Numbered from the stretch's first letter, positions 53,959 through 62,781 are shown. The stretch is 64,000 bases of DNA from a virus (IMGVR_UViG_3300021957_000004); one strand, 5' to 3'. The notes: generated by a model not told the origin, from the sequence alone. Numbers and translations: made by a program.

Positions 53959-53971
53959 TACGTATAAATAA

Positions 53972-54439
53972 ATGGTAAACATAAAAGAGGATTTAAAATT
54001 GGATATTAATAAATTAAGAGAACAACTCATCATAGATGAAGGACAAGTGAATGAAATATATAATGATCACCTTGGTTATCCTACATTCGGCATTGGCCAT
54101 CTCGTCTTGGAAGGAGACGCAGAACATGGGGCTTCGGTTGGCACTCCAGTCACAGAAGAACGTGTTAAAGCATGTTTTGAAAAAGACGTAGAAACAGTAA
54201 TTGGAGATTGTAAAATATTACATGATGCTTGGGATGGATATCCTGAAGAAGCTAAACAAGTAATAGCTAACATGATGTTCAATATGGGTAGAACAAGGTT
54301 AAGTAAATTTAAAAAACATAATACCGCACTGCAAAGTGGGGATTGGAAAACAGCCGCTGCAGAAGGAAGAGATTCCAGATGGTATAAACAAGTGACAAAT
54401 CGAGCAGAACGATTAATGTCAAGATTAGAGGAAATATAA
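53972..54439 (+). CDS. T4-type lysozyme (GH24) endolysin
   Basis: DEG...YNDHLGYPTFGIGHL, NMMFNMG, SRWYKQVTNRA; TATAAATA upstream. Confidence 0.93.
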   Translation: MVNIKEDLKLDINKLREQLIIDEGQVNEIYNDHLGYPTFGIGHLVLEGDAEHGASVGTPVTEERVKACFEKDVETVIGDCKILHDAWDGYPEEAKQVIANMMFNMGRTRLSKFKKHNTALQSGDWKTAAAEGRDSRWYKQVTNRAERLMSRLEEI

Positions 54440-54697: not shown

Positions 54698-55132
54698 ATG
54701 GCTTACTCAAGTAAGGTAGTAGATCGATTCGAAGATGTACTAAAGAATCCTGCCAAACATGGTGTTGGTAGATTCGACCCCAACGATCCAAATGTTGTAA
54801 CCGGTATGACTGGTGCTCCAGCATGCGGCGATGTTATGAAGTTGGATCTTAAATTAAATCCAGACACAGAAGAAATACTAGATGTTAAATTTAAAACATA
54901 TGGGTGTGGAAGTGCAATTGCATCATCTACACTTTTTGTTGAAATGCTTAAAGGTAAAACAATTGCAGAAGCAAAACTTATTAAAGATAAAGACATTGCA
55001 GCAGCACTTGAATTACCTCCAATCAAACTCCACTGTTCTGTATTAGCAGAAGATTCAATTAGACAAGCAATTACTAAATGGGAAGAAAAAGTTTCTCATC
55101 GTAAACACAATCAACATGATAGATCTAACTGA
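54698..55132 (+). CDS. iscU: Fe-S cluster scaffold IscU
   Basis: GAPACGDVM, KTYGCGSAIASS, LPPIKLHCS. Confidence 0.95.
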   Translation: MAYSSKVVDRFEDVLKNPAKHGVGRFDPNDPNVVTGMTGAPACGDVMKLDLKLNPDTEEILDVKFKTYGCGSAIASSTLFVEMLKGKTIAEAKLIKDKDIAAALELPPIKLHCSVLAEDSIRQAITKWEEKVSHRKHNQHDRSN

Positions 55133-55433
55133 TGCTGCGATCAGTCAGGCGATTAGCCAAACGGAGAATAATGGCAACGATACTATTCGAGTTGGCATTA
55201 CTGGCGGCGGGTGTACTGGTTATAAGTATGTTATCCGTTTCGCTGGCTCTATTCATTCAACAGATCACATCCTAGATTACGGCAAGTTTTCTATAGTAAT
55301 AGATGAGGATTCTCTTCCTCTTTTAAAAGGTTCTACTCTTGACTATGTTCAGGAAGGACTTAATCAATCATATAAGATAATCAATCCCCAAGAAACTGCA
55401 TCCTGCGGTTGCGGTGTTAGTATTTCATTCTAG
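55116..55433 (+). CDS. iscA: A-type Fe-S carrier IscA/HesB
   Basis: GGGCTG, LDY, NP...SCGCG.S. Confidence 0.92.
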   Translation: MIDLTDAAISQAISQTENNGNDTIRVGITGGGCTGYKYVIRFAGSIHSTDHILDYGKFSIVIDEDSLPLLKGSTLDYVQEGLNQSYKIINPQETASCGCGVSISF

Positions 55434-55445
55434 CACTTTAAATTA

Positions 55446-55453
55446 TATAAATA
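55446..55453 (+). promoter_or_regulatory. Late promoter heading the curli-like operon
   Basis: TATAAATA, 5 nt gap to ATG 55459. Confidence 0.75.
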
Positions 55454-55458
55454 GATAC

Positions 55459-55752
55459 ATGGAAATATTTGAACTGATTATGGAAGTAGGTGCACCTGTT
55501 GCAGGCGCATTACTTATGGGTTATTTTATATTCCTAATATTAAAACAGATATTAGGTGGCTTGGTTGATTCGATTGCGACTTTAACTATGTTCTGTAAGA
55601 GCTTAGAAACAAGAGTTACAACAATGAACAACGAGATGATTAAAATAGATCTATTAGTAAGTAGTGCATTAGAGCTTACTCCACCTGTCGATAGAGTTGC
55701 TAGAGCAAGTAACTTTGTTGAAGATGGCAAAATAGACGCAAGGAGAGATTAA
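55459..55752 (+). CDS. TM plus coiled-coil protein (paralogue 1)
   Basis: GAPVAGALLMGYFIF. Confidence 0.65.
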   Translation: MEIFELIMEVGAPVAGALLMGYFIFLILKQILGGLVDSIATLTMFCKSLETRVTTMNNEMIKIDLLVSSALELTPPVDRVARASNFVEDGKIDARRD

Positions 55753-55753
55753 A

Positions 55754-56068
55754 ATGGAAGAGGTAGCTTTAGTTACTAGTAGCGATCCAACCATAGTATC
55801 ACTTATTAATGATTATGGTTTTCCAATCGTACTTGCTGTCGGAATGGGATATTTTATCTACTACGTATGGCAATTTATTTCCAATGAACTGGAACCTGAA
55901 ATAGAAAAAATGCACTTTGCATTAATCAGGTTAATTGATCAGGTAAGAATGCTTGATCAAGATATGATTAGATTACAGCAAAAAGTAAATGTTGTTCTCG
56001 AATATAGGGAAAGACAAAAATTCCTAGAAGAAGCAGAAGGAAAAATAAAGAATGAAGAAACCACCTAG
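55754..56068 (+). CDS. TM plus coiled-coil protein (paralogue 2)
   Basis: GFPIVLAVGMGYFIY. Confidence 0.65.
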   Translation: MEEVALVTSSDPTIVSLINDYGFPIVLAVGMGYFIYYVWQFISNELEPEIEKMHFALIRLIDQVRMLDQDMIRLQQKVNVVLEYRERQKFLEEAEGKIKNEETT

Positions 56069-56618
56069 CGCAGGAATGAATCCCTGGTTATTAACCGGAG
56101 TTATGTTTGTAGCAATCTTGCTACTTTCTTCTGTCAATATAAAGGCAGATGAGCTTGTACACGAATTTAAGAATCCGTCCTTTTCGGGGATTGGAAGTTC
56201 TGCCCATTACCTAACAGTAGAGAACCAAGAGAAATCTAGAAGAGATGCTATCAAAAAAGATATAGAAGCAGCTCTAAAACAGGCAGAAAGAGATGCAGAG
56301 AATACCACACTTGCTAAATTTATGCGTAACCTCGAAAGTAGGATTTACGCACAACTATCTAAACAACTGGTAGAAGAGTTATTTAAAACATGTTCAGTAG
56401 AAGCAGTAGCAGCTGGAACTTGTTCAGAAACAACATTCGGTAGTTTTGTATTAGAAGGTAATACAATAACATATCAAAAAACAATGTGTGATGCATCCCT
56501 TTGGGCTTGTACTCAAGGAGATGATGTTATTGTTATGACAATCGTGGCAGAAGATGGAACAGAAACTCAAATAGTAATACCAATAGGTGCGGGGACAGTA
56601 GGCAGTGGAGATGGTTAG
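56052..56618 (+). CDS. csgF: Curli assembly protein CsgF-like
   Basis: Signal peptide then ELVHEFKNPSFSG; LESRIYAQLS. Confidence 0.82.
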   Translation: MKKPPSAGMNPWLLTGVMFVAILLLSSVNIKADELVHEFKNPSFSGIGSSAHYLTVENQEKSRRDAIKKDIEAALKQAERDAENTTLAKFMRNLESRIYAQLSKQLVEELFKTCSVEAVAAGTCSETTFGSFVLEGNTITYQKTMCDASLWACTQGDDVIVMTIVAEDGTETQIVIPIGAGTVGSGDG

Positions 56619-57576
56619 AAATCTATTTTTAATATCATTACTTGGCTTACTTGCCAGTTGTGCCTCTGTTGTACCTCCAGGAGGATTAAAATCTACTGGT
56701 TGCAATCCTAATTTAAATTTACAATGTGTAGAAGAACCACAAGTGGTTGAAATGCCTACACATAAAGAATTAAGAAGTTTACCGTCACCAGCTAAACCGG
56801 TTGTTGTAGCTGTATATCAATATATGGACAAGACTGGGCAAAGAAAACAGAAAGGTAATGCAGCAATGTTTAGTACTGCAGTATCACAGGGCGGTGAAAC
56901 AATGCTAATCGATGCATTGAAAAGTGCTGGTGAAGGAACGTGGTTTAGAGTGGTAGAAAGAGTAGGATTAGATCACCTTACTCGAGAACGACAGATCGTT
57001 CGTACTACTAGAGAACAGTATAACACTGATGGAAAAGATGAAACAGGTCTTGCTCCATTATTGTTCGCTGGAATTATTCTTGAAGGCGGTATCATAGGTT
57101 TTGATACTAATATTGAGACAGGAGGAATAGGAGCTAGAACGCTTGGTGTTGGTTACTCACAACAATACCGAAGAGATATAGTTACAGTATCCCTCCGAGC
57201 AGTGAGTACTTTAACTGGAGAAATCCTATTAAATGTACAGACATCAAAAACTATTCTGTCGATCGCAGATGGTTATGATGTATTTAAATTCGTTGACTTA
57301 GATACCCAATTGATAGAGATCGAAGATGGTATGACAGAAAACGAATCAGTAACACGGTCGCTTCGCTCAACAATTGAAGCAGCTGTGTTGGAAATAATCT
57401 ATCAGGGAGATGAACGAGGATTCTGGGAAATCAATTGGCCAGTAAATAAAATAATAGAAGGTAAAGTTGGTGAGATTATCGACGAAGCTGAAATTATTCT
57501 TACTAAGCCTATTGAAAAATCAGATCTACCTATTGAAGTTCCTACTCCTGATAATATAGAGGAAATAAGAGGATGA
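56605..57576 (+). CDS. csgG: Curli secretion channel CsgG lipoprotein
   Basis: LASC lipobox, DKTGQRK, FSTAVSQG, WFRVVER, ERQIVR, EGGIIGFD. Confidence 0.92.
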   Translation: MEMVRNLFLISLLGLLASCASVVPPGGLKSTGCNPNLNLQCVEEPQVVEMPTHKELRSLPSPAKPVVVAVYQYMDKTGQRKQKGNAAMFSTAVSQGGETMLIDALKSAGEGTWFRVVERVGLDHLTRERQIVRTTREQYNTDGKDETGLAPLLFAGIILEGGIIGFDTNIETGGIGARTLGVGYSQQYRRDIVTVSLRAVSTLTGEILLNVQTSKTILSIADGYDVFKFVDLDTQLIEIEDGMTENESVTRSLRSTIEAAVLEIIYQGDERGFWEINWPVNKIIEGKVGEIIDEAEIILTKPIEKSDLPIEVPTPDNIEEIRG

Positions 57577-58301
57577 AAATGTTTAAAAGATATATCGCAT
57601 TTTTAATTTTATTATGCCCTGTGGTTTTATTTGCCGGAGTAAACGATAACGAAGTTAAGCTTGACCAGGCTGGTGACACACTTAAATTATACATTGACCA
57701 AATAGGTTATGGTAATAAGATTTGTGGAACTATTTCATCTGGAGCTTGTGCTAGTGATTGGACACTAACCGGTAATACCGTAACAATGGATATTGATATG
57801 ATTGGTAATCTAAACCAAATCTTCGGTCCAACCTTATTTGATAGTACTGATGTTGACTTAAAGTTAACTGGTAATAGCAATATATGGGATTGGAACGTAG
57901 GCTATGGTGGAAGTGCTGATAGTTCAACATTAGATGTAGACATTACTGGAAACTCAAATACATTCGATATAGACTGGGCTTATTCAGCTTCAGCCGAAAG
58001 ATTGGATTTTGATTTAGATATTACTGGTAGTTCAAACGTCTGGAATATTGATATTGAAAACGATGATGCAACTTGGAATGTTGATGTTGTAGGAAGTTCG
58101 AATAACTTCTTAACAACCCAATCCGATGGTGCTTATAATTCAATCACTATGGAATACATAGGTTCGAATGGAGACATCGATATATTACAATCTTCAGGTA
58201 CATGCCCAACGGGTATATCTGGATGTTACGGAGTTATAAATGCAGATTTTGATTCAGAGAATGCAATTATTGACATTAAGCAAAAAGATACTGGCGACTA
58301 G
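57573..58301 (+). CDS. Secreted curlin-like beta-solenoid protein
   Basis: Signal peptide; repeated IDQ.G..N and ITG.SN units. Confidence 0.7.
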   Translation: MKMFKRYIAFLILLCPVVLFAGVNDNEVKLDQAGDTLKLYIDQIGYGNKICGTISSGACASDWTLTGNTVTMDIDMIGNLNQIFGPTLFDSTDVDLKLTGNSNIWDWNVGYGGSADSSTLDVDITGNSNTFDIDWAYSASAERLDFDLDITGSSNVWNIDIENDDATWNVDVVGSSNNFLTTQSDGAYNSITMEYIGSNGDIDILQSSGTCPTGISGCYGVINADFDSENAIIDIKQKDTGD

Positions 58302-59403
58302 TTTATTAGTTAGTTCTTTTGCTTTTGCAGATAATATTGGTGATATAACAGAACACAAGGGCAGTGGTGGGATTACTCGCGAAGGTGAGAGCTTTACCAC
58401 TGAACTTGGACTAGGTGTTCAACAACTGGACGCAATTGAAACGGCTAAAGGTCGGATTAAATTGACATTCCTAGATGATACAGTATTAAGGTTAGTAGAA
58501 CACACAGAGGTTATACTAACTGAATACTATTTTGATCCAAATAATACTAAGAAAAATACTCTTGGTATGAAGTTTGTATCAGGTACTGCACGATTCGCTA
58601 CGGGCGGATTAGGATTAGTACCAAAAGAGAATATAGTAATAACAACCCCAACAGCTACCATAGCAGTTAGGGGAACAGATTTTACTACTACTGTGGATGA
58701 ATTAGGCCGAAGTTTAGTTATACTTCTACCGGAAACAGAATGTACAATCGATGGAGATTGTTCACCATCTGGATCTATCACAGTAACAAATGAAGGCGGT
58801 ACAGTAGCTTTAACCGAAGCATACCAAGCAACAATGGTATCAAGCTTTGATAAAATACCTACACAGCCCGTTACATTAGATAATATAAATTTAAATATGA
58901 TAGACAATATGTTTATCGTTTCTCCACCCCAGGAAATAAAAGAGGTGGTAGAAGAAGAAAGTAAAGGCTCAGACACTAGTACTTCTTTACTAGATTTTAC
59001 TGAGCTAGATCAGGATTTATTAAAAGAAGAATGGGAAGAAGAAGATTTAGAATATACTGAACTTGATATGGATCTATTGGATGTAGATTTCTTACAAGAT
59101 GTTTTAGTTGCTATTGAAGAAGTTAATATATTAAAACGTAGTACTCAGTCAGCTAACAATTCATCAGGTACAGCTGATATTCAAGGAACCATTTTAGGCT
59201 TTGATAAAGATACACAATATAATACTATCATAGATCAAGGTATGGGACAGATATGGTTTTATAGAGAGGTGAATGGAATCATTTCTGTAAAAATACCTAT
59301 AGATAGTAACACAACATTAAGGAGCGAGAATGAGGGGAAAGAAAACCTTATCACTGTTGGCGATGGTCAGTCTATCGTTATCGTCATACGTCAAGGCGGG
59401 TGA
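58261..59403 (+). CDS. FecR-domain protein
   Basis: Signal peptide, D.IET..G, FLDDT, TPTATIAVRGTDF. Confidence 0.85.
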   Translation: MQLLTLSKKILATSLLVSSFAFADNIGDITEHKGSGGITREGESFTTELGLGVQQLDAIETAKGRIKLTFLDDTVLRLVEHTEVILTEYYFDPNNTKKNTLGMKFVSGTARFATGGLGLVPKENIVITTPTATIAVRGTDFTTTVDELGRSLVILLPETECTIDGDCSPSGSITVTNEGGTVALTEAYQATMVSSFDKIPTQPVTLDNINLNMIDNMFIVSPPQEIKEVVEEESKGSDTSTSLLDFTELDQDLLKEEWEEEDLEYTELDMDLLDVDFLQDVLVAIEEVNILKRSTQSANNSSGTADIQGTILGFDKDTQYNTIIDQGMGQIWFYREVNGIISVKIPIDSNTTLRSENEGKENLITVGDGQSIVIVIRQGG

Positions 59404-60142
59404 TGAACACAACCACGTAGAAATAGACCAAGTTAGTTCTAGTGATAACTTTAACCTGACTATAGAACAGATCGGGTATGAAACCCATGCAAGATTCTCT
59501 TTTGACCACAATAACAATACTGTAAATCTTTTACAATCAGGAAACAATATGTATTTTGGATATTCAGATGCATGGGGTTCTGGTTATAGTTGGGGTGGGG
59601 ATTTAGATGGATTACGTAATGAGATAGATGTAAGACAAAAATGTTCTGTGACTGTTTGTAATGCTAATGATTTCCAATTTCACGTTTGGGGTGATGACAA
59701 TAAAGTCGTATTCGGACAAGGATATGAAAACAATAATAGTACTACACCAAACTGGAATTATGACGGGACAGAGCCAGGTGGAAATTTTGTTAGATTAGAT
59801 ATTCACGGGGACAATAACGAATTTAAGGGAAGTCAAAAGCAGGATACGAATACTATATCCCATTCTATAATAGCAAATATATACACTGATAATAATGATG
59901 TATACGTTAAACAAATGCAAAATGGAAACAAATCATTTACTCTTACAATTAGAAATTCGCATGGTAATGAAGTTGACGTTGTACAGAAAAATGACGGAGC
60001 TCATACAGCAACAGTAAATTTATTAGGATCACAGCCAACAGATTTATCTTTAACACAATCAGGTAGTACAACCCAATCATATACGTTATCCCAAAATTGC
60101 GTGACAGTTGGTGGTTGTAGTATATCAGTAACACAGAATTAG
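59330..60142 (+). CDS. Secreted curlin-like repeat protein
   Basis: Signal peptide; IEQIG, LLQSG, LTQSG, HGDNN units; N/Q/G-rich. Confidence 0.7.
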   Translation: MRGKKTLSLLAMVSLSLSSYVKAGDEHNHVEIDQVSSSDNFNLTIEQIGYETHARFSFDHNNNTVNLLQSGNNMYFGYSDAWGSGYSWGGDLDGLRNEIDVRQKCSVTVCNANDFQFHVWGDDNKVVFGQGYENNNSTTPNWNYDGTEPGGNFVRLDIHGDNNEFKGSQKQDTNTISHSIIANIYTDNNDVYVKQMQNGNKSFTLTIRNSHGNEVDVVQKNDGAHTATVNLLGSQPTDLSLTQSGSTTQSYTLSQNCVTVGGCSISVTQN

Positions 60143-60164
60143 TATTGCATAGTATAACACTTTT

Positions 60165-62012
60165 ATGAAATATATAACAACGATTTGGACAAGTATTGCA
60201 CTTTGTATTGCACTTTTAGGCATAAGAGTTTTAGACCCAGTTTTAGTAGAACAATTAAGATTAAATAGTTTCGATCAATATATTCAGAGCTTACCCGACA
60301 AGGAATCCGATGTTGTTCTACTATCATTCGGAGAAGAAACTCTAGCTACATATGGCCAATACCCTTTTCCAAGACATACCTACGCACAACTGATATCAGA
60401 TCTAAGAGCTGCTAACGCTGGGATGATTGGGTTTACTATTATGTTTCCAGAAGCAGATAGGTTTGGTGGTGATGAGGTATTTATTTCCTGGGTAAACAAT
60501 AACGGAGTCATTCTCGCGCAAGACGCGTCCTCTCGCGGGCGCTCGGATACGGCCCCGTACGTGGGTACGGCCACGCTCGGCGAGGGCGACGCGTACGACT
60601 TTGTTCCTAAATATAGTGGGTTAGTAACAAATATAAAAGAATTAGAAGACGCTGCATGGGGTGTAGGATTAATAAATGCAGGTCAAGAAGTAGATAATAT
60701 AACAAGACGGATTCCTTTATTGTCCCAAATAAACGGACAGTTATATCCATCAATGCCTTTAGAAATCATAAGAGTAATACAAGATAAAAAGTCTTATTCA
60801 CTAAAAGCAAACTATGATGGTATAGAAAATGTAATGATTCCACCATATGAACCTATTCAAACAGATTACAATAGTTCTATATGGTTAAATATGAATTATA
60901 CTCATAAAGAATATGAATACGGTAAAGATGTATTACCTAATCTTCAAGGTCAAACAGTCTTGGTTGGTCTAACAGCAAGTGGCCTTGCTTCTCAAATACC
61001 AACTCCTCAAGGTTTGTTCTCTGCTCACCAATTGCAGGCGTCGGCACTTCAGACTGTGATAGATGGGAATTCGATATCTCGTCCTGGTTGGACATACTTA
61101 GTTGAATTGTTAGCTCTCGCCATAGGATCGGTTCTGATTGTTCTAGGGATATATCAGATGTCTGTCTTGACAGGTGCTGTATTCTCCGCCGTGATCGTGC
61201 TTGGCTACTCTGTATATGTTTGGTACGTCTGGACCTCAATGGGTATACTCCTTGATCTAACCTATCCTATAATAGTATATATACTTTCTTTTTCCTCAGC
61301 CGCATTTAATAATTTTTATATACAATTTAAATTAAGACAACAGATTAAAGGTCAATTCTCTACATACCTTTCTCCAGATATGGTTAACATGCTAGTCAAA
61401 GATCCTAGCTTAATGAAGCTCGGTGGTGATAGAAAAGAAATGACATTCCTCTTTATGGATATATGTGGTTTTACCCCTATCTCGGAATACTATAAGAACA
61501 ATGATGATCCAGAAGGATTAGTAGAATTAGTCAATGAATTCCTAGATGCTATGACTACTATCATCTTATCCAACGGCGGAACCATCGATAAATATATGGG
61601 TGACTGTATAATGGCATTTTGGAATGCTCCATTACCTTGTAAGAACCATGCTGAAATGGCAGTTAAGTCAGCAATAGAAATAGAAGAAAAAACAAATGAA
61701 CTTAAAGAACTTTATAAAGAACGTGGCCTTCCCGATATTAACGTTGGCACTGGTGTTAACACCGGCGATTGCATTGTTGGTAATATGGGTAGTAAATCCA
61801 GATTTGATTATTCGGTCATTGGAGATGCAGTCAACCTTGCCGCCAGGCTCGAGGCTACCGCGGCTCGTCATGAGTATGTAGAATACAAAACCATTATATC
61901 ATCCTTCACACAACAACTTCTTCCTCAGGGTTATGTCTCTCATAACATCGGAACCATCAAGGTTAAGGGTAAAGAAGAAGAAATCACTATATATTCCCCT
62001 AAAAAGAAATAG
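60165..62012 (+). CDS. CHASE2-domain class III adenylate/guanylate cyclase
   Basis: YPFPR CHASE2 motif, TM cluster, FMDICGFT, DKYMGDCIMAFW, GDAVNLAARLE, VKGK. Confidence 0.93.
   Translation: MKYITTIWTSIALCIALLGIRVLDPVLVEQLRLNSFDQYIQSLPDKESDVVLLSFGEETLATYGQYPFPRHTYAQLISDLRAANAGMIGFTIMFPEADRFGGDEVFISWVNNNGVILAQDASSRGRSDTAPYVGTATLGEGDAYDFVPKYSGLVTNIKELEDAAWGVGLINAGQEVDNITRRIPLLSQINGQLYPSMPLEIIRVIQDKKSYSLKANYDGIENVMIPPYEPIQTDYNSSIWLNMNYTHKEYEYGKDVLPNLQGQTVLVGLTASGLASQIPTPQGLFSAHQLQASALQTVIDGNSISRPGWTYLVELLALAIGSVLIVLGIYQMSVLTGAVFSAVIVLGYSVYVWYVWTSMGILLDLTYPIIVYILSFSSAAFNNFYIQFKLRQQIKGQFSTYLSPDMVNMLVKDPSLMKLGGDRKEMTFLFMDICGFTPISEYYKNNDDPEGLVELVNEFLDAMTTIILSNGGTIDKYMGDCIMAFWNAPLPCKNHAEMAVKSAIEIEEKTNELKELYKERGLPDINVGTGVNTGDCIVGNMGSKSRFDYSVIGDAVNLAARLEATAARHEYVEYKTIISSFTQQLLPQGYVSHNIGTIKVKGKEEEITIYSPKKK
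60513..60599. other. Largest CpG-rich island, inside the cyclase gene
   Basis: 25 of 29 consecutive codons end in G/C; contains CCTCTCGCGGGCG. Confidence 0.85.
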
Positions 62013-62015
62013 TTT

Positions 62016-62076
62016 CGTCACAATCTCGTGAACTTTGCAAAAAAAGGTTTACATCCATGCTGTTTTACGGTATAAT
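62016..62076 (+). promoter_or_regulatory. Early promoter with GTCAC-N6-GTGAA element
   Basis: GTCAC 62017, GTGAA 62028, GTTTAC 62047, TATAAT 62071. Confidence 0.85.
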
Positions 62077-62105
62077 ACACCTATATTCAACAAAAAGGAG
62101 TTAAT

Positions 62106-62201
62106 ATGAAAACATTAAAAAAGCACGGATTACTAGATTCTGATTTTCTAGGGCCAATGATTACTTTGGCAGTATTTCTAATTATAGGAGAGATAGTATA
62201 A
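62106..62201 (+). CDS. 31-aa single-TM early peptide, not in ORF track
   Basis: AAGGAG SD; MKTLKKHGLLDSDFLGPMITLAVFLIIGEIV; stop overlaps the next ATG. Confidence 0.6.
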   Translation: MKTLKKHGLLDSDFLGPMITLAVFLIIGEIV

Positions 62202-62641
62202 TGAAAATAATATTTGACGTAGACGGAACACTTTTGGATATCGAACACAGAAGACATTTCGTAGAAGGTCCTAATAAAGACTGGGATACATTTATGGATC
62301 CAGCAGAAATGTTTAAGGACATTCCAAATCAACCAGTAGTTGATATAGCCATAGCTATGGAAAAAGCTGGACATGAAATAATCGTAGTTTCAGCAAGAAA
62401 CGAAAGACATAGAACAGTTACAGAAAACAGTCTTAACAGTGCTGGTGTATTTAGATCAGCTCTTTTTCTAAGACCAGATGGTGACTTTAGAACAGATAGT
62501 GAATTTAAGCAAGAAGTTCTTGACAGTCTTATTGCTAACGATTGGAAACCTGATTTGGTCTTCGATGACAGAAATCAAGTGGTTAACATGTGGAGACAAA
62601 ACGGTCTTACATGTGTACAAGTTGCAGAAGGTGACTTCTAA
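62201..62641 (+). CDS. Stand-alone PseT-type polynucleotide 3'-phosphatase (HAD)
   Basis: FDVDGTL, VSAR, FK, FDDR.QVV.MWR..G..C.QVAEGDF. Confidence 0.85.
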   Translation: MKIIFDVDGTLLDIEHRRHFVEGPNKDWDTFMDPAEMFKDIPNQPVVDIAIAMEKAGHEIIVVSARNERHRTVTENSLNSAGVFRSALFLRPDGDFRTDSEFKQEVLDSLIANDWKPDLVFDDRNQVVNMWRQNGLTCVQVAEGDF

Positions 62642-62705
62642 GATGGGACGAGTGGGTGTAATGCGTAAGGCTTTAAATAGCGAACCGTTTCCCAGAATCC
62701 TTTCT

Positions 62706-62781
62706 TGTGACGTAACTGTGACAATTCGTGACGAAATAGTCACAAAAAAAGGTTTACAAACTACCAAAACTACGGTATAAT
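62706..62781 (+). promoter_or_regulatory. Early promoter with four phased GTSAC repeats
   Basis: GTGAC 62707, 62718, 62728; GTCAC 62739; GTTTAC 62752; TATAAT 62776. Confidence 0.85.

Follow-up and report, generated by a model that had tools for sequence, protein, structure and literature searches.

A late operon of pelagiphages that joins curli-type secretion genes to a FecR-domain protein and a CHASE2 adenylate cyclase

The stretch of viral DNA analysed here (64,000 nucleotides of IMGVR_UViG_3300021957_000004, referred to as the window) carries eight plus-strand genes, contiguous or overlapping, between positions 55446 and 62012 behind a single conserved T4-type late promoter, TATAAATA. With moderate confidence, we read this pelagiphage curli/type VIII secretion system (T8SS) cassette as one late-transcribed, chimeric operon put together from two modules of bacterial origin, a T8SS and a FecR/CHASE2 sensor. 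The composition of the cassette is not new, as it corresponds to the published curli cluster of SAR11/OM43 phages (PMC9599517; GenBank, Melnitz).

Layout and transcription of the cassette

Two paralogous small membrane proteins come first, then CsgF and CsgG; the remaining four genes encode two curlin-like proteins on either side of a FecR-domain protein and, last, a class III adenylate cyclase with a CHASE2 domain (Table 1). Junctions vary from overlaps of 4 to 74 nt to gaps of 1 to 22 nt. Every element of the initial annotation was found where it had been placed, and domain profiles bore out its gene calls. The cassette is colinear in 67 of 67 related loci; TM1, TM2 and CsgF occur in all 63 loci with upstream room, and Rep1, FecR and the cyclase in 33 of the 34 that continue for 5 kb or more beyond CsgG. 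A cyclase not syntenic with csgFG had been named as evidence against a joint function; instead, the cyclase accompanies csgFG in every relative with enough DNA.

Table 1. Features of the cassette in the window
Feature	Coordinates	Strand	Description	Support
Late promoter	55446..55453	+	T4-type, TATAAATA	5 nt ahead of first ATG (55459); conserved in relatives
TM1	55459..55752	+	97 aa single-pass membrane protein, C-terminal helical/heptad region	phrog_18771 3e-23
TM2	55754..56068	+	104 aa, TM1 paralogue	phrog_18771 2e-27
CsgF-like	56052..56618	+	188 aa; signal peptide, N-terminal plug motif FKNPSFSG, additional Cys-containing C-terminal region	PF10614 2.6e-10
CsgG-like	56605..57576	+	323 aa outer-membrane lipoprotein channel, lipobox LASC	PF03783 6e-48
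Rep1	57573..58301	+	242 aa Asp-rich curlin-like repeat protein, CsgB-like position	signal peptide; Rep2 paralogue
FecR-domain protein	58240 or 58261..59403	+	exported; probable start 58261 (380 aa)	PF04773 1.8e-10
Rep2	59330..60142	+	270 aa exported curlin-like beta-solenoid (predicted)	AF2 model; closest structure CsgA 8c50
Cyclase	60165..62012	+	615 aa receptor adenylate cyclase	CHASE2 PF05226 5e-36; Guanylate_cyc PF00211 2e-19

Annotations of HTVC008M and Melnitz list these genes too, and Wittmers et al. (2022) described an identical gene order in myo- and podo-pelagiphages (PMC9599517). Comparison with the published cluster (PMC9599517; PMC7029224; Melnitz PMC9004378, GenBank MZ577097) revealed an identical order of all eight genes and no structural difference; the window represents an uncultured relative, its CsgG being 42–45% and its cyclase 33–44% identical to the HTVC008M/Melnitz copies. 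The initial annotation was right that csgF and csgG had been reported in phages, but it underestimated prior knowledge, as the whole eight-gene set is published (PMC9599517) and annotated in GenBank. The pelagiphage papers make no mention of CHASE2, and they take FecR as an iron regulator and the two small proteins as histidine kinases. Neither of these two assignments is supported.

The TATAAATA octamer is no rarity in the window, where its 15 copies (14.3 expected) correspond to chance level, with 14 of the 15 on the plus strand. The late promoter proposed at the outset holds: in 44 of 59 related loci the octamer is retained 13–35 nt upstream of the first gene despite diverged flanks, and in about eight more, read by eye from the upstream sequences, CATAAATA stands in its place. 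The single internal sigma-70-like site in the operon is not conserved.

TM1 and TM2 are 30% identical (E 5e-8), and their distance matrices correlate at r 0.88. The hydrophobic segment of TM1 spans residues 10–32. Neither protein had a Pfam or NCBIfam match at E up to 0.1, HisKA and HATPase_c included, and their nearest atlas clusters consist of viral hypothetical proteins. TM1 was labelled 'HK' by Wittmers et al. (PMC9599517); for two proteins of 97 and 104 aa in which no HisKA/DHp or HATPase_c domain was found, the histidine kinase label is unsupported.

The secretion genes and their repeat proteins

Two components of type VIII secretion, a CsgG channel and a CsgF with a barrel-plugging N-terminal segment, are encoded in the cassette. 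CsgG matches the NCBIfam CsgG family (1.5e-51) and E. coli CsgG structures in the PDB (8e-48), and a lipobox is found in 50 of 65 relatives. In its constriction, compared with E. coli, Y51 is replaced by K and N55 by M, while F56 is retained. The CsgF plug motif F-K-N-P-S-F-S-G comes after the signal peptide, and its extended form, H-x-F-K-(N/S)-P-S-F-(S/N)-G, is shared by nearly all of 65 relatives. No CsgE, CsgC/CsgH or CsgD was detected among the eight genes with Pfam, PHROGs and NCBIfam; these components are also absent from alphaproteobacterial systems (PMC9599517).

With the csgBAC/csgDEFG curli system of Enterobacteria the cassette shares CsgG, the CsgF plug motif, repeats of the Q-x-G-x-G-N type and predicted beta-solenoid subunits. 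It differs in lacking CsgE, CsgC and CsgD, in the replacement of Y51 and N55, and in its control by a phage late promoter. The phage subunits (242 and 270 aa) are also larger than enterobacterial curlins, contain Cys loops and are devoid of the Gly-rich N22-type targeting segment.

The paralogy proposed for the small membrane pair holds (E 5e-8), and the two repeat proteins are paralogues as well (hhalign probability 97%, E 2.4e-11). By sequence, the homology of Rep1 and Rep2 to curlins is weak: Rep1 matches NCBIfam CsgA at 1.4e-3 and CsgB at 0.012, and for Rep2 Curlin_rpt weakly matches 7 of 18 relatives (best E 3e-3). The AF2 model of Rep2 (pLDDT 73) is all beta, and its top structural match is Pontibacter CsgA 8c50 (Z 17.3), tied with generic SufD-type beta-helices (Z 16–17). 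Each repeat protein has two short Cys-Cys loops, of which E. coli CsgA has none. The distance matrix of Rep1 follows that of CsgF (r 0.88), and Rep2 is the hypervariable member of the cassette, with a median identity of 46% among cassettes versus 72–80% for the adjoining genes. The first module would consist of the CsgG channel, CsgF as its plug/adaptor, Rep1 as a conserved CsgB-like repeat protein and Rep2 as the fast-evolving CsgA-like one; during late infection, it would insert a pore into the outer membrane of the host, through which we infer that Rep1 and Rep2 are exported.

The FecR-domain protein and the CHASE2 cyclase

The FecR-domain protein is predicted to consist of a signal peptide, an extended FecR domain, an acidic linker and a small C-terminal beta domain; forms of 380 aa are present in databases. 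The FecR domain begins at about residue 58, after a cleavable-type signal peptide. The AF2 model is poor (pLDDT 44) and confident only for residues 23–115, the C-terminal region of about 70 aa being modelled with low confidence. A FecIR-type sigma regulator was considered and rejected, as the protein has no cytoplasmic anti-sigma domain and no Sigma70_r2 domain was found in the phage record. With FecIRA ferric citrate signalling it has in common only the Pfam FecR domain; the cytoplasmic anti-sigma domain, that type of TM anchor, the FecI sigma factor and the TonB-dependent receptor are all missing. The 'FecR' of the cassette is not an iron regulator.

The cyclase consists of a TM segment, a periplasmic CHASE2 domain (aa 14–324), three TM helices and a class III catalytic domain (aa 424–608); its hydrophobic segments, at aa 10–28 and three between aa 311 and 379, give the TM-CHASE2-TM arrangement. 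Alignment to P. aeruginosa CyaB 3r5g (1.7e-30) placed the metal Asp residues at D432/D480, the substrate Lys at K476 together with S550, and the transition-state Asn and Arg at N557/R561. All six catalytic residues are invariant across 30 cassettes, which agrees, as far as sequence can tell, with the intact ATP-type cyclase described in the initial annotation. A search for cNMP-binding domains found none in the phage record, in the complete HTVC008M and Melnitz genomes or in a 129-kb relative, and the phage record contained neither GAF nor ECF sigma domains.

In the phage, only Rep2 lies between the FecR and cyclase genes, and bacteria display the same partnership. Within a sample of 301 bacterial genomes (called 'Alphaproteobacteria' on the strength of a single MAG's label), CHASE2 was found in 129 and the phage FecR profile matched 97; at least 33 FecR-CHASE2 pairs within 4 kb were counted by hand from the listed coordinates. 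At all 20 bacterial loci fetched, a FecR-domain ORF directly adjoins a homologue of the phage CHASE2 cyclase, and no homologues of CsgG, CsgF, Rep or TM proteins were found within about 7–9 kb. Likewise, no bacterial CsgG match fell within 15 kb of the listed CHASE2 or FecR matches. Cyclases constitute 27 of the 30 top bacterial CHASE2 proteins, and phage and bacterial catalytic domains are 32–57% identical. SMc02177 of S. meliloti presumably adjoins cyaD1. A FecR domain is present in SMc02177 (PMC5498481), and in the same species NsrA acts with CyaK/CyaD to produce cAMP that is read by Clr (PMC7529298, PMC13001267). Clusters of a FecR-domain outer-membrane protein with a CHASE2 cyclase have been described (PMC9239204), as has a FecR partnered with a CHASE2 kinase in Burkholderia (PMC5192318). 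The sampled genomes and this literature (PMC9239204, PMC7529298, PMC5192318) substantiate the view, put forward at the outset, of FecR and CHASE2 cyclase as a bacterial trans-envelope signalling pair.

Like the bacterial clusters (S. meliloti NsrA/CyaK and CyaD1-SMc02177; those of Campylobacterota, PMC9239204), the phage combines an exported FecR-domain protein with a TM-CHASE2-3TM-class III cyclase. Bacterial relatives align only to positions about 28–215 of the phage FecR profile. Bacterial partners contain cadherin, Big_9, RTX, VWA or barrel-like parts; the phage protein has just its acidic linker and C-terminal region, without the adhesin-like arrays or beta-barrel often found in bacterial partners. 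Bacterial clusters may further contain a TPR protein, a CRP-type receptor and a phosphodiesterase; all three are missing from the phage, which is joined to a T8SS instead.

In a comparison of 29 cassettes, the strongest co-variation of the CHASE2 sensor is with the FecR domain, and it is independent of the cyclase's own catalytic domain (CHASE2 vs FecR_N: r 0.86, partial r 0.69, Mantel p ≤5e-4), a mirror-tree signal confounded by linkage and shared ancestry. Rep2, located between the two, gave a partial r of 0.03, and its partial r values against FecR and CHASE2 (0.03–0.23) indicate independent evolution. The FecR C-terminus, in turn, is not curlin-like. The proposal that the curlin-like proteins signal to FecR found no support in either result.

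The second module would be a periplasmic FecR-domain protein with an inner-membrane CHASE2 receptor adenylate cyclase, the bacterial counterparts of which convert extracytoplasmic cues into cAMP synthesis. The FecR protein most likely contacts the periplasmic CHASE2 domain, a physical contact that we infer, and sets cyclase activity; if so, cAMP in the infected cell would report the state of the envelope or surface.

Other readings and the meaning of the cassette

Possible, though in our view doubtful, is a complete curli fibre system coating or aggregating infected cells ('sibling capture' or a superinfection shield), with FecR regulating in response to iron and the cyclase feeding into the transcription of curli genes (Zaragoza-Solas 2020, PMC7029224; Wittmers 2022, PMC9599517). 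The CsgG and CsgF homologues are genuine, with a conserved plug motif, and two exported proteins are predicted curlin-like beta-solenoids; Rep1 co-varies with CsgF as expected of a nucleator, Rep2 is as variable as a surface-exposed subunit might be, and published arguments are accompanied by metatranscript detection (PMC9599517, PMC7029224). The regulatory part of this proposal fits less well, as the FecR protein has a signal peptide, no cytoplasmic anti-sigma part and no ECF sigma factor in the record, and its bacterial relatives are paired with CHASE2 cyclases, not with genes for iron transport or curli. Since the phage late promoter drives the operon, a CsgD-type transcriptional circuit would be unnecessary. 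Buchholz et al. observed no clumping of Melnitz-infected cells (PMC9004378). Fibres and a sensor role could nonetheless coexist in one cassette.

The CsgG/CsgF pore may alternatively serve a new purpose in the outer membrane, as a gated secretin or pinholin that times lysis (Buchholz et al. 2022), with TM1/TM2 as holin/antiholin or spanin-like partners, which we regard as improbable. Late expression, indicated by promoter conservation, the altered CsgG constriction residues, the small single-pass TM proteins with helical tails and an endolysin gene with its own TATAAATA 1 kb upstream of the cassette in the window agree with a lytic role. However, the closeness of the endolysin is not conserved, ssb, thyX or an oxygenase being found upstream in HTVC008M and Melnitz; CsgG channels reside in the outer membrane and holins in the inner one; and two conserved exported repeat proteins, FecR and a cyclase of apparently active type are left unexplained. 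Highly improbable is an ungated CsgG import pore for cofactors or macromolecules needed by the phage, with FecR sensing the imported ligand: the idea has been raised (PMC7029224, PMC9599517) and no CsgE gate is present among the eight genes, but CsgF and the curlin-like proteins are given no role, the cassette has no transporter or binding protein, and FecR relatives pair with CHASE2 cyclases, not uptake systems.

The reading of the cassette as two joined bacterial modules can be extended to a self-contained outside-in sensor of the phage, in which a variable antenna of curlin-like proteins exported by CsgG/CsgF would act through periplasmic FecR on the CHASE2 cyclase and adjust late infection via cAMP. 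We consider this extension unlikely. With or without it, the nature of the cue and the target of cAMP are conjectural, and any part in lysis timing or in sensing superinfection is purely speculative.

The hosts of these phages are the ocean's most abundant heterotrophs, and several percent of each phage genome is given over to the cassette. If the extended reading were true, an infected SAR11/OM43 cell could sense its neighbours, superinfecting phages or envelope damage, and late infection (e.g., lysis timing) would be tuned by cAMP through a receptor. Seen as a sensor pair taken whole from bacteria, and not as an iron regulator beside a generic cyclase, FecR/CHASE2 would be a rare example of a receptor-type second-messenger system that a lytic phage introduces into the host envelope, and the "curli" puzzle turns into concrete experimental questions.

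Gene content and prior descriptions of the cassette

The source record, a 130 kb IMG/VR virus with a completeness estimate of 72%, belongs to a T4-like marine myophage that is kin of Pelagibacter phage HTVC008M. It encodes eight abutting or overlapping genes in one cassette, the coordinates of which are collected in the table below together with those of the flanking features.

Features of the cassette and its surroundings (positions in the window)
Feature	Position	Strand	Description
Second TATAAATA	53963-53970		directly upstream of the lysozyme gene
Phage lysozyme gene	within 53963-54439		PF00959, 5.7e-9
Fe-S cluster assembly genes	54698-55433		NifU/IscU-like (PF01592, 1e-38), IscA/HesB-like (PF01521, 1.6e-11)
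Whole cassette	55446-62012	+	eight genes
TM1 and TM2		+	97 and 104 aa membrane proteins; paralogues, 30% identical, E 5e-8; phrog_18771 matches both
CsgF		+	PF10614, 2.6e-10
CsgG		+	PF03783, 6e-48; lipobox LASC
Rep1		+	242-aa repeat protein
Sigma-70-like site	58110-58139		11/12 match, inside Rep1
Rep1/FecR overlap	58240-58301		41-62 nt
FecR-domain protein	from Met at 58261	+	PF04773, 1.8e-10
FecR/Rep2 overlap	59330-59403		74 nt
Rep2	59330-60142	+	270-aa repeat protein
Cyclase	60165-62012	+	615 aa; CHASE2 (5e-36) and class III cyclase domain (2e-19)
Region after the cyclase gene	62013-62781		early-type promoters at 62048 and 62753
PNKP-type HAD phosphatase	62201-62641		PF25109, 3e-35

Pelagimyophage csgF and csgG were reported to share an operon with three further genes (Zaragoza-Solas et al. 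2020, PMC7029224), and the operon was also described in OM43 phage Melnitz, with a gated pore for lysis timing proposed (Buchholz et al. 2022, PMC9004378). The cluster found in podo- and myo-pelagiphages, namely HK, HK, CsgF, CsgG, CsgA/B, FecR, CsgA/B and adenylate cyclase, has exactly the same composition as the cassette analysed here, and is widespread and transcribed (Wittmers et al. 2022, PMC9599517). The GenBank annotation of Melnitz lists the same eight genes, including a 'FecR domain protein' and two 'curlin associated repeat proteins'. On account of this annotation and the published composition, the eight-gene cassette is already known. CHASE2 is mentioned in none of the three papers, and no paper tying CHASE2 to a phage cyclase was found in the literature.

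Phage CsgG matches the structures of E. coli CsgG at 8e-48, with Y51 and N55 of the constriction loop replaced by K and M, respectively, and F56 retained. The CsgF plug motif F-K-N-P-S-F-S-G directly follows the signal peptide and is present in nearly all of 65 relatives. Rep1, FecR and Rep2 start with typical signal peptides, and the exceptionally long Rep1/FecR and FecR/Rep2 overlaps are kept across relatives. TM1 and TM2 are too short to be kinases, and neither a HisKA nor a HATPase_c domain was found in them.

Synteny and transcription

The synteny set comprised 59 IMG/VR loci, seven contigs from MAGs and HTVC008M. Lack of synteny between the cyclase and csgFG in relatives would have counted against the proposal of the initial annotation; this was not observed, and gene order proved colinear in 67/67 loci with CsgG. 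TM1, TM2 and CsgF were present in all 63 loci with upstream room, while Rep1, FecR and the cyclase were present in 33 of the 34 loci with at least 5 kb downstream, the lone exception being HTVC008M, in which a Rep1 homologue is annotated that is too diverged for tblastn. All eight genes occur in 37 loci. The scan of genome contigs with the FecR alignment returned seven contigs, each with the whole phage cassette, and no true bacterial relatives. These seven fetched loci (L062-L068) are assigned to MAGs from unrelated phyla (Saprospirales, Sphingobacteriales, Synechococcus, Rhodobacterales, Planctomycetaceae) and probably represent phage DNA that was wrongly binned into species-representative genomes.

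TATAAATA lies 5 nt upstream of the first cassette ATG. The copy number of this octamer in the window is near the chance level (15 copies against 14.3 expected), and 14 of the 15 copies are on the + strand. In 44/59 related loci, the flanks of which have otherwise diverged, the late-promoter motif precedes the first gene by 13-35 nt, and visual reading of the upstream sequences revealed CATAAATA in about eight further loci. A sigma-70-like site inside Rep1, evaluated as an internal promoter for FecR, Rep2 and the cyclase, is found in just the 4 closest of 51 relatives and is probably a chance occurrence. Since the late-promoter motif is retained and the internal site is not conserved, the cassette is best read as one late operon, which bears out the eight-gene late operon of the initial annotation.

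Several features of the surroundings deserve mention. The lysozyme gene lies 1 kb upstream of the cassette in a neighbourhood that HTVC008M and Melnitz do not share. The Fe-S cluster assembly genes are located just upstream, and in many relatives the cassette likewise follows the end of an IscA-like gene. Several loci (L005, L010, L055 and others) carry an insert of 230-940 nt between Rep2 and the cyclase gene, with room for a small gene or promoter. Downstream of the cassette, the two early-type promoters are near-identical (TTTACA-17-TATAAT), each with an A-tract and GTGAC/GTCACA boxes ahead of it. The best inverted box pair near them has an 8-nt spacing, compared to 6 nt in the canonical CRP site, and no evidence of a cAMP link was found for these two promoters.

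FecR and the CHASE2 cyclase

For the cyclase, hydropathy predicts a single helix at the N-terminus and three more behind CHASE2, as is standard for CHASE2 receptors. The alignment to P. aeruginosa CyaB (3r5g, 1.7e-30) identified both metal Asp residues, the Asn/Arg pair, Ser at the Thr/Asp position, and the adenine-selecting Lys, which sits in I-D-K-Y-M-G-D. None of these six residues varies among 30 cassettes, even where the identity of the catalytic domain drops to 61%, in agreement with the intact catalytic motifs and the Lys of DKY noted initially.

Bacterial counterparts were sought in a sample of 301 genomes from the class of a MAG labelled Rhodobacterales. The phage FecR profile matched 97 genomes, in each case through its FecR-domain part alone (profile positions about 28-215); CHASE2 was found in 129 and CsgG in 39. 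Comparison of the listed coordinates by eye placed at least 33 FecR matches within 4 kb of a CHASE2 match, about a dozen more being linked to CHASE2 via a giant FecR-containing ORF, and no CsgG match within 15 kb of the listed CHASE2 or FecR matches. Among the 30 top-scoring bacterial CHASE2 proteins, 27 have a cyclase domain as well. Many FecR partners in bacteria are large proteins that contain cadherin-like, Big_9, RTX, Calx-beta, VWA or lectin domains, and others, of about 900 aa, have a barrel-like C-terminus. Twenty FecR/CHASE2 loci were fetched together with about 7-9 kb of DNA to either side, and in all of them the FecR-domain ORF is the immediate neighbour of a gene homologous to that of the phage CHASE2 cyclase (E 1e-24 to 1e-98), with no homologues of CsgG, CsgF, Rep1, Rep2, TM1 or TM2 in these flanks. 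In S. meliloti, SMc02177 presumably adjoins cyaD1.

SMc02177 is a FecR-domain protein (PMC5498481), and the outer-membrane protein NsrA of S. meliloti is required for protein signals to activate the CHASE2 cyclases CyaK and CyaD1/D2, and hence Clr (PMC7529298, PMC13001267). Clusters of a FecR-domain outer-membrane protein and a CHASE2 cyclase are known in Campylobacterota (PMC9239204), and a FecR/CHASE2-kinase operon in Burkholderia (PMC5192318). These clusters agree with the adjacency in the fetched loci, and the co-occurrence cited in the initial annotation is thereby substantiated. Because bacterial FecR/CHASE2 pairs are adjacent without CsgG and the other cassette genes, and the literature matches, the phage cassette is, as judged from gene content, a T8SS joined to a FecR/CHASE2 sensor pair. 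With no anti-sigma part in the protein and no ECF sigma factor in the virus record, FecR is not an iron regulator of the FecIR type; its AF2 model has a low mean pLDDT of 44.

Median identity to the window, computed part by part over 32 complete cassettes, was 69-80% for TM1, TM2, CsgF, CsgG, Rep1 and the N- and C-terminal parts of FecR, 78% for the cyclase catalytic domain, 60% for the FecR linker region, 52% for the CHASE2 domain, 50% for the cyclase TM region and 46% for Rep2. Pairwise-distance matrices of 29 distinct cassettes showed that TM1 and TM2 co-vary (r 0.88) and that CsgF, CsgG, Rep1, FecR and CHASE2 form one co-varying block (r 0.71-0.89), with Rep2 and the catalytic domain each independent of all other parts. 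The FecR domain is the best tracker of CHASE2 (r 0.86, Mantel p <=5e-4; partial r 0.69 once the CsgG/CsgF/TM1 background is removed), a pattern that matched interacting partners would show and to which linkage and shared ancestry may also contribute. This coupling persists across the Rep2 gene, which sits between FecR and CHASE2 and shows no co-variation with CHASE2 (partial r 0.03). CHASE2 is likewise uncoupled from its own catalytic domain (partial r 0.07). The cyclase gene is mosaic across loci L003-L066: in some relatives a CHASE2 domain of 90% identity goes with a catalytic domain of 64-67% identity, and the opposite combination also occurs. Such mosaicism implies that sensor and catalytic halves have recombined, with at least two classes of catalytic domain.

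Curlin-like proteins and the proposed circuit

The curlin-type segment I-D/E-Q-I-G-Y-x-N occurs in both Rep1 and Rep2, which hhalign identifies as paralogues (97%, E 2.4e-11). Their curlin matches are weak: NCBIfam CsgA at 1.4e-3 for Rep1, and Pfam Curlin_rpt in 7 of 18 Rep2 relatives (best E 3e-3). The AF2 model of Rep2 (pLDDT 73, pTM 0.74) is an all-beta strand-turn-strand solenoid. Among 48,161 PDB representatives Pontibacter CsgA 8c50 ranked first (Z 17.3; 219 residues aligned, 18% identity), closely followed by SufD-type helices (Z 16-17); Foldseek against the PDB returned weak generic beta-helix matches only. 'Curlin-like' is a reasonable designation, though not a proven one. Rep1 tracks CsgF (r 0.88), which fits a CsgB-like, machinery-bound role, and the hypervariability of Rep2 would suit a subunit that is exposed and exchangeable. 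No gene of the cassette varies more than Rep2: some relatives (loci L027, L030, L047) lack about 50 aa of the N-terminal half, with the signal peptide and Cys-capped C-terminus conserved.

The initial annotation proposed a circuit leading from the curlin-like proteins via FecR to cAMP. A curlin-like docking element at the FecR C-terminus was rejected, as hhalign against both Rep alignments was negative (probability 0.8-1.6%). The search for a phage-encoded cAMP receptor was likewise negative: no cNMP_binding domain was found in the virus record or the complete HTVC008M and Melnitz genomes, and no GAF domain in the virus record. The check for a host-side receptor in five small genomes of the 301-genome sample gave mixed results. 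The circuit is upheld in part: FecR/CHASE2 pairing, synteny and co-variation speak for it, but neither hhalign nor co-variation in the 29 cassettes supports a signal from the curlin-like proteins to FecR. What is added here to the known cassette is its reading as two modules, with FecR/CHASE2 as the sensor pair, and the correction of two published labels, histidine kinase for TM1/TM2 and iron regulator for FecR.
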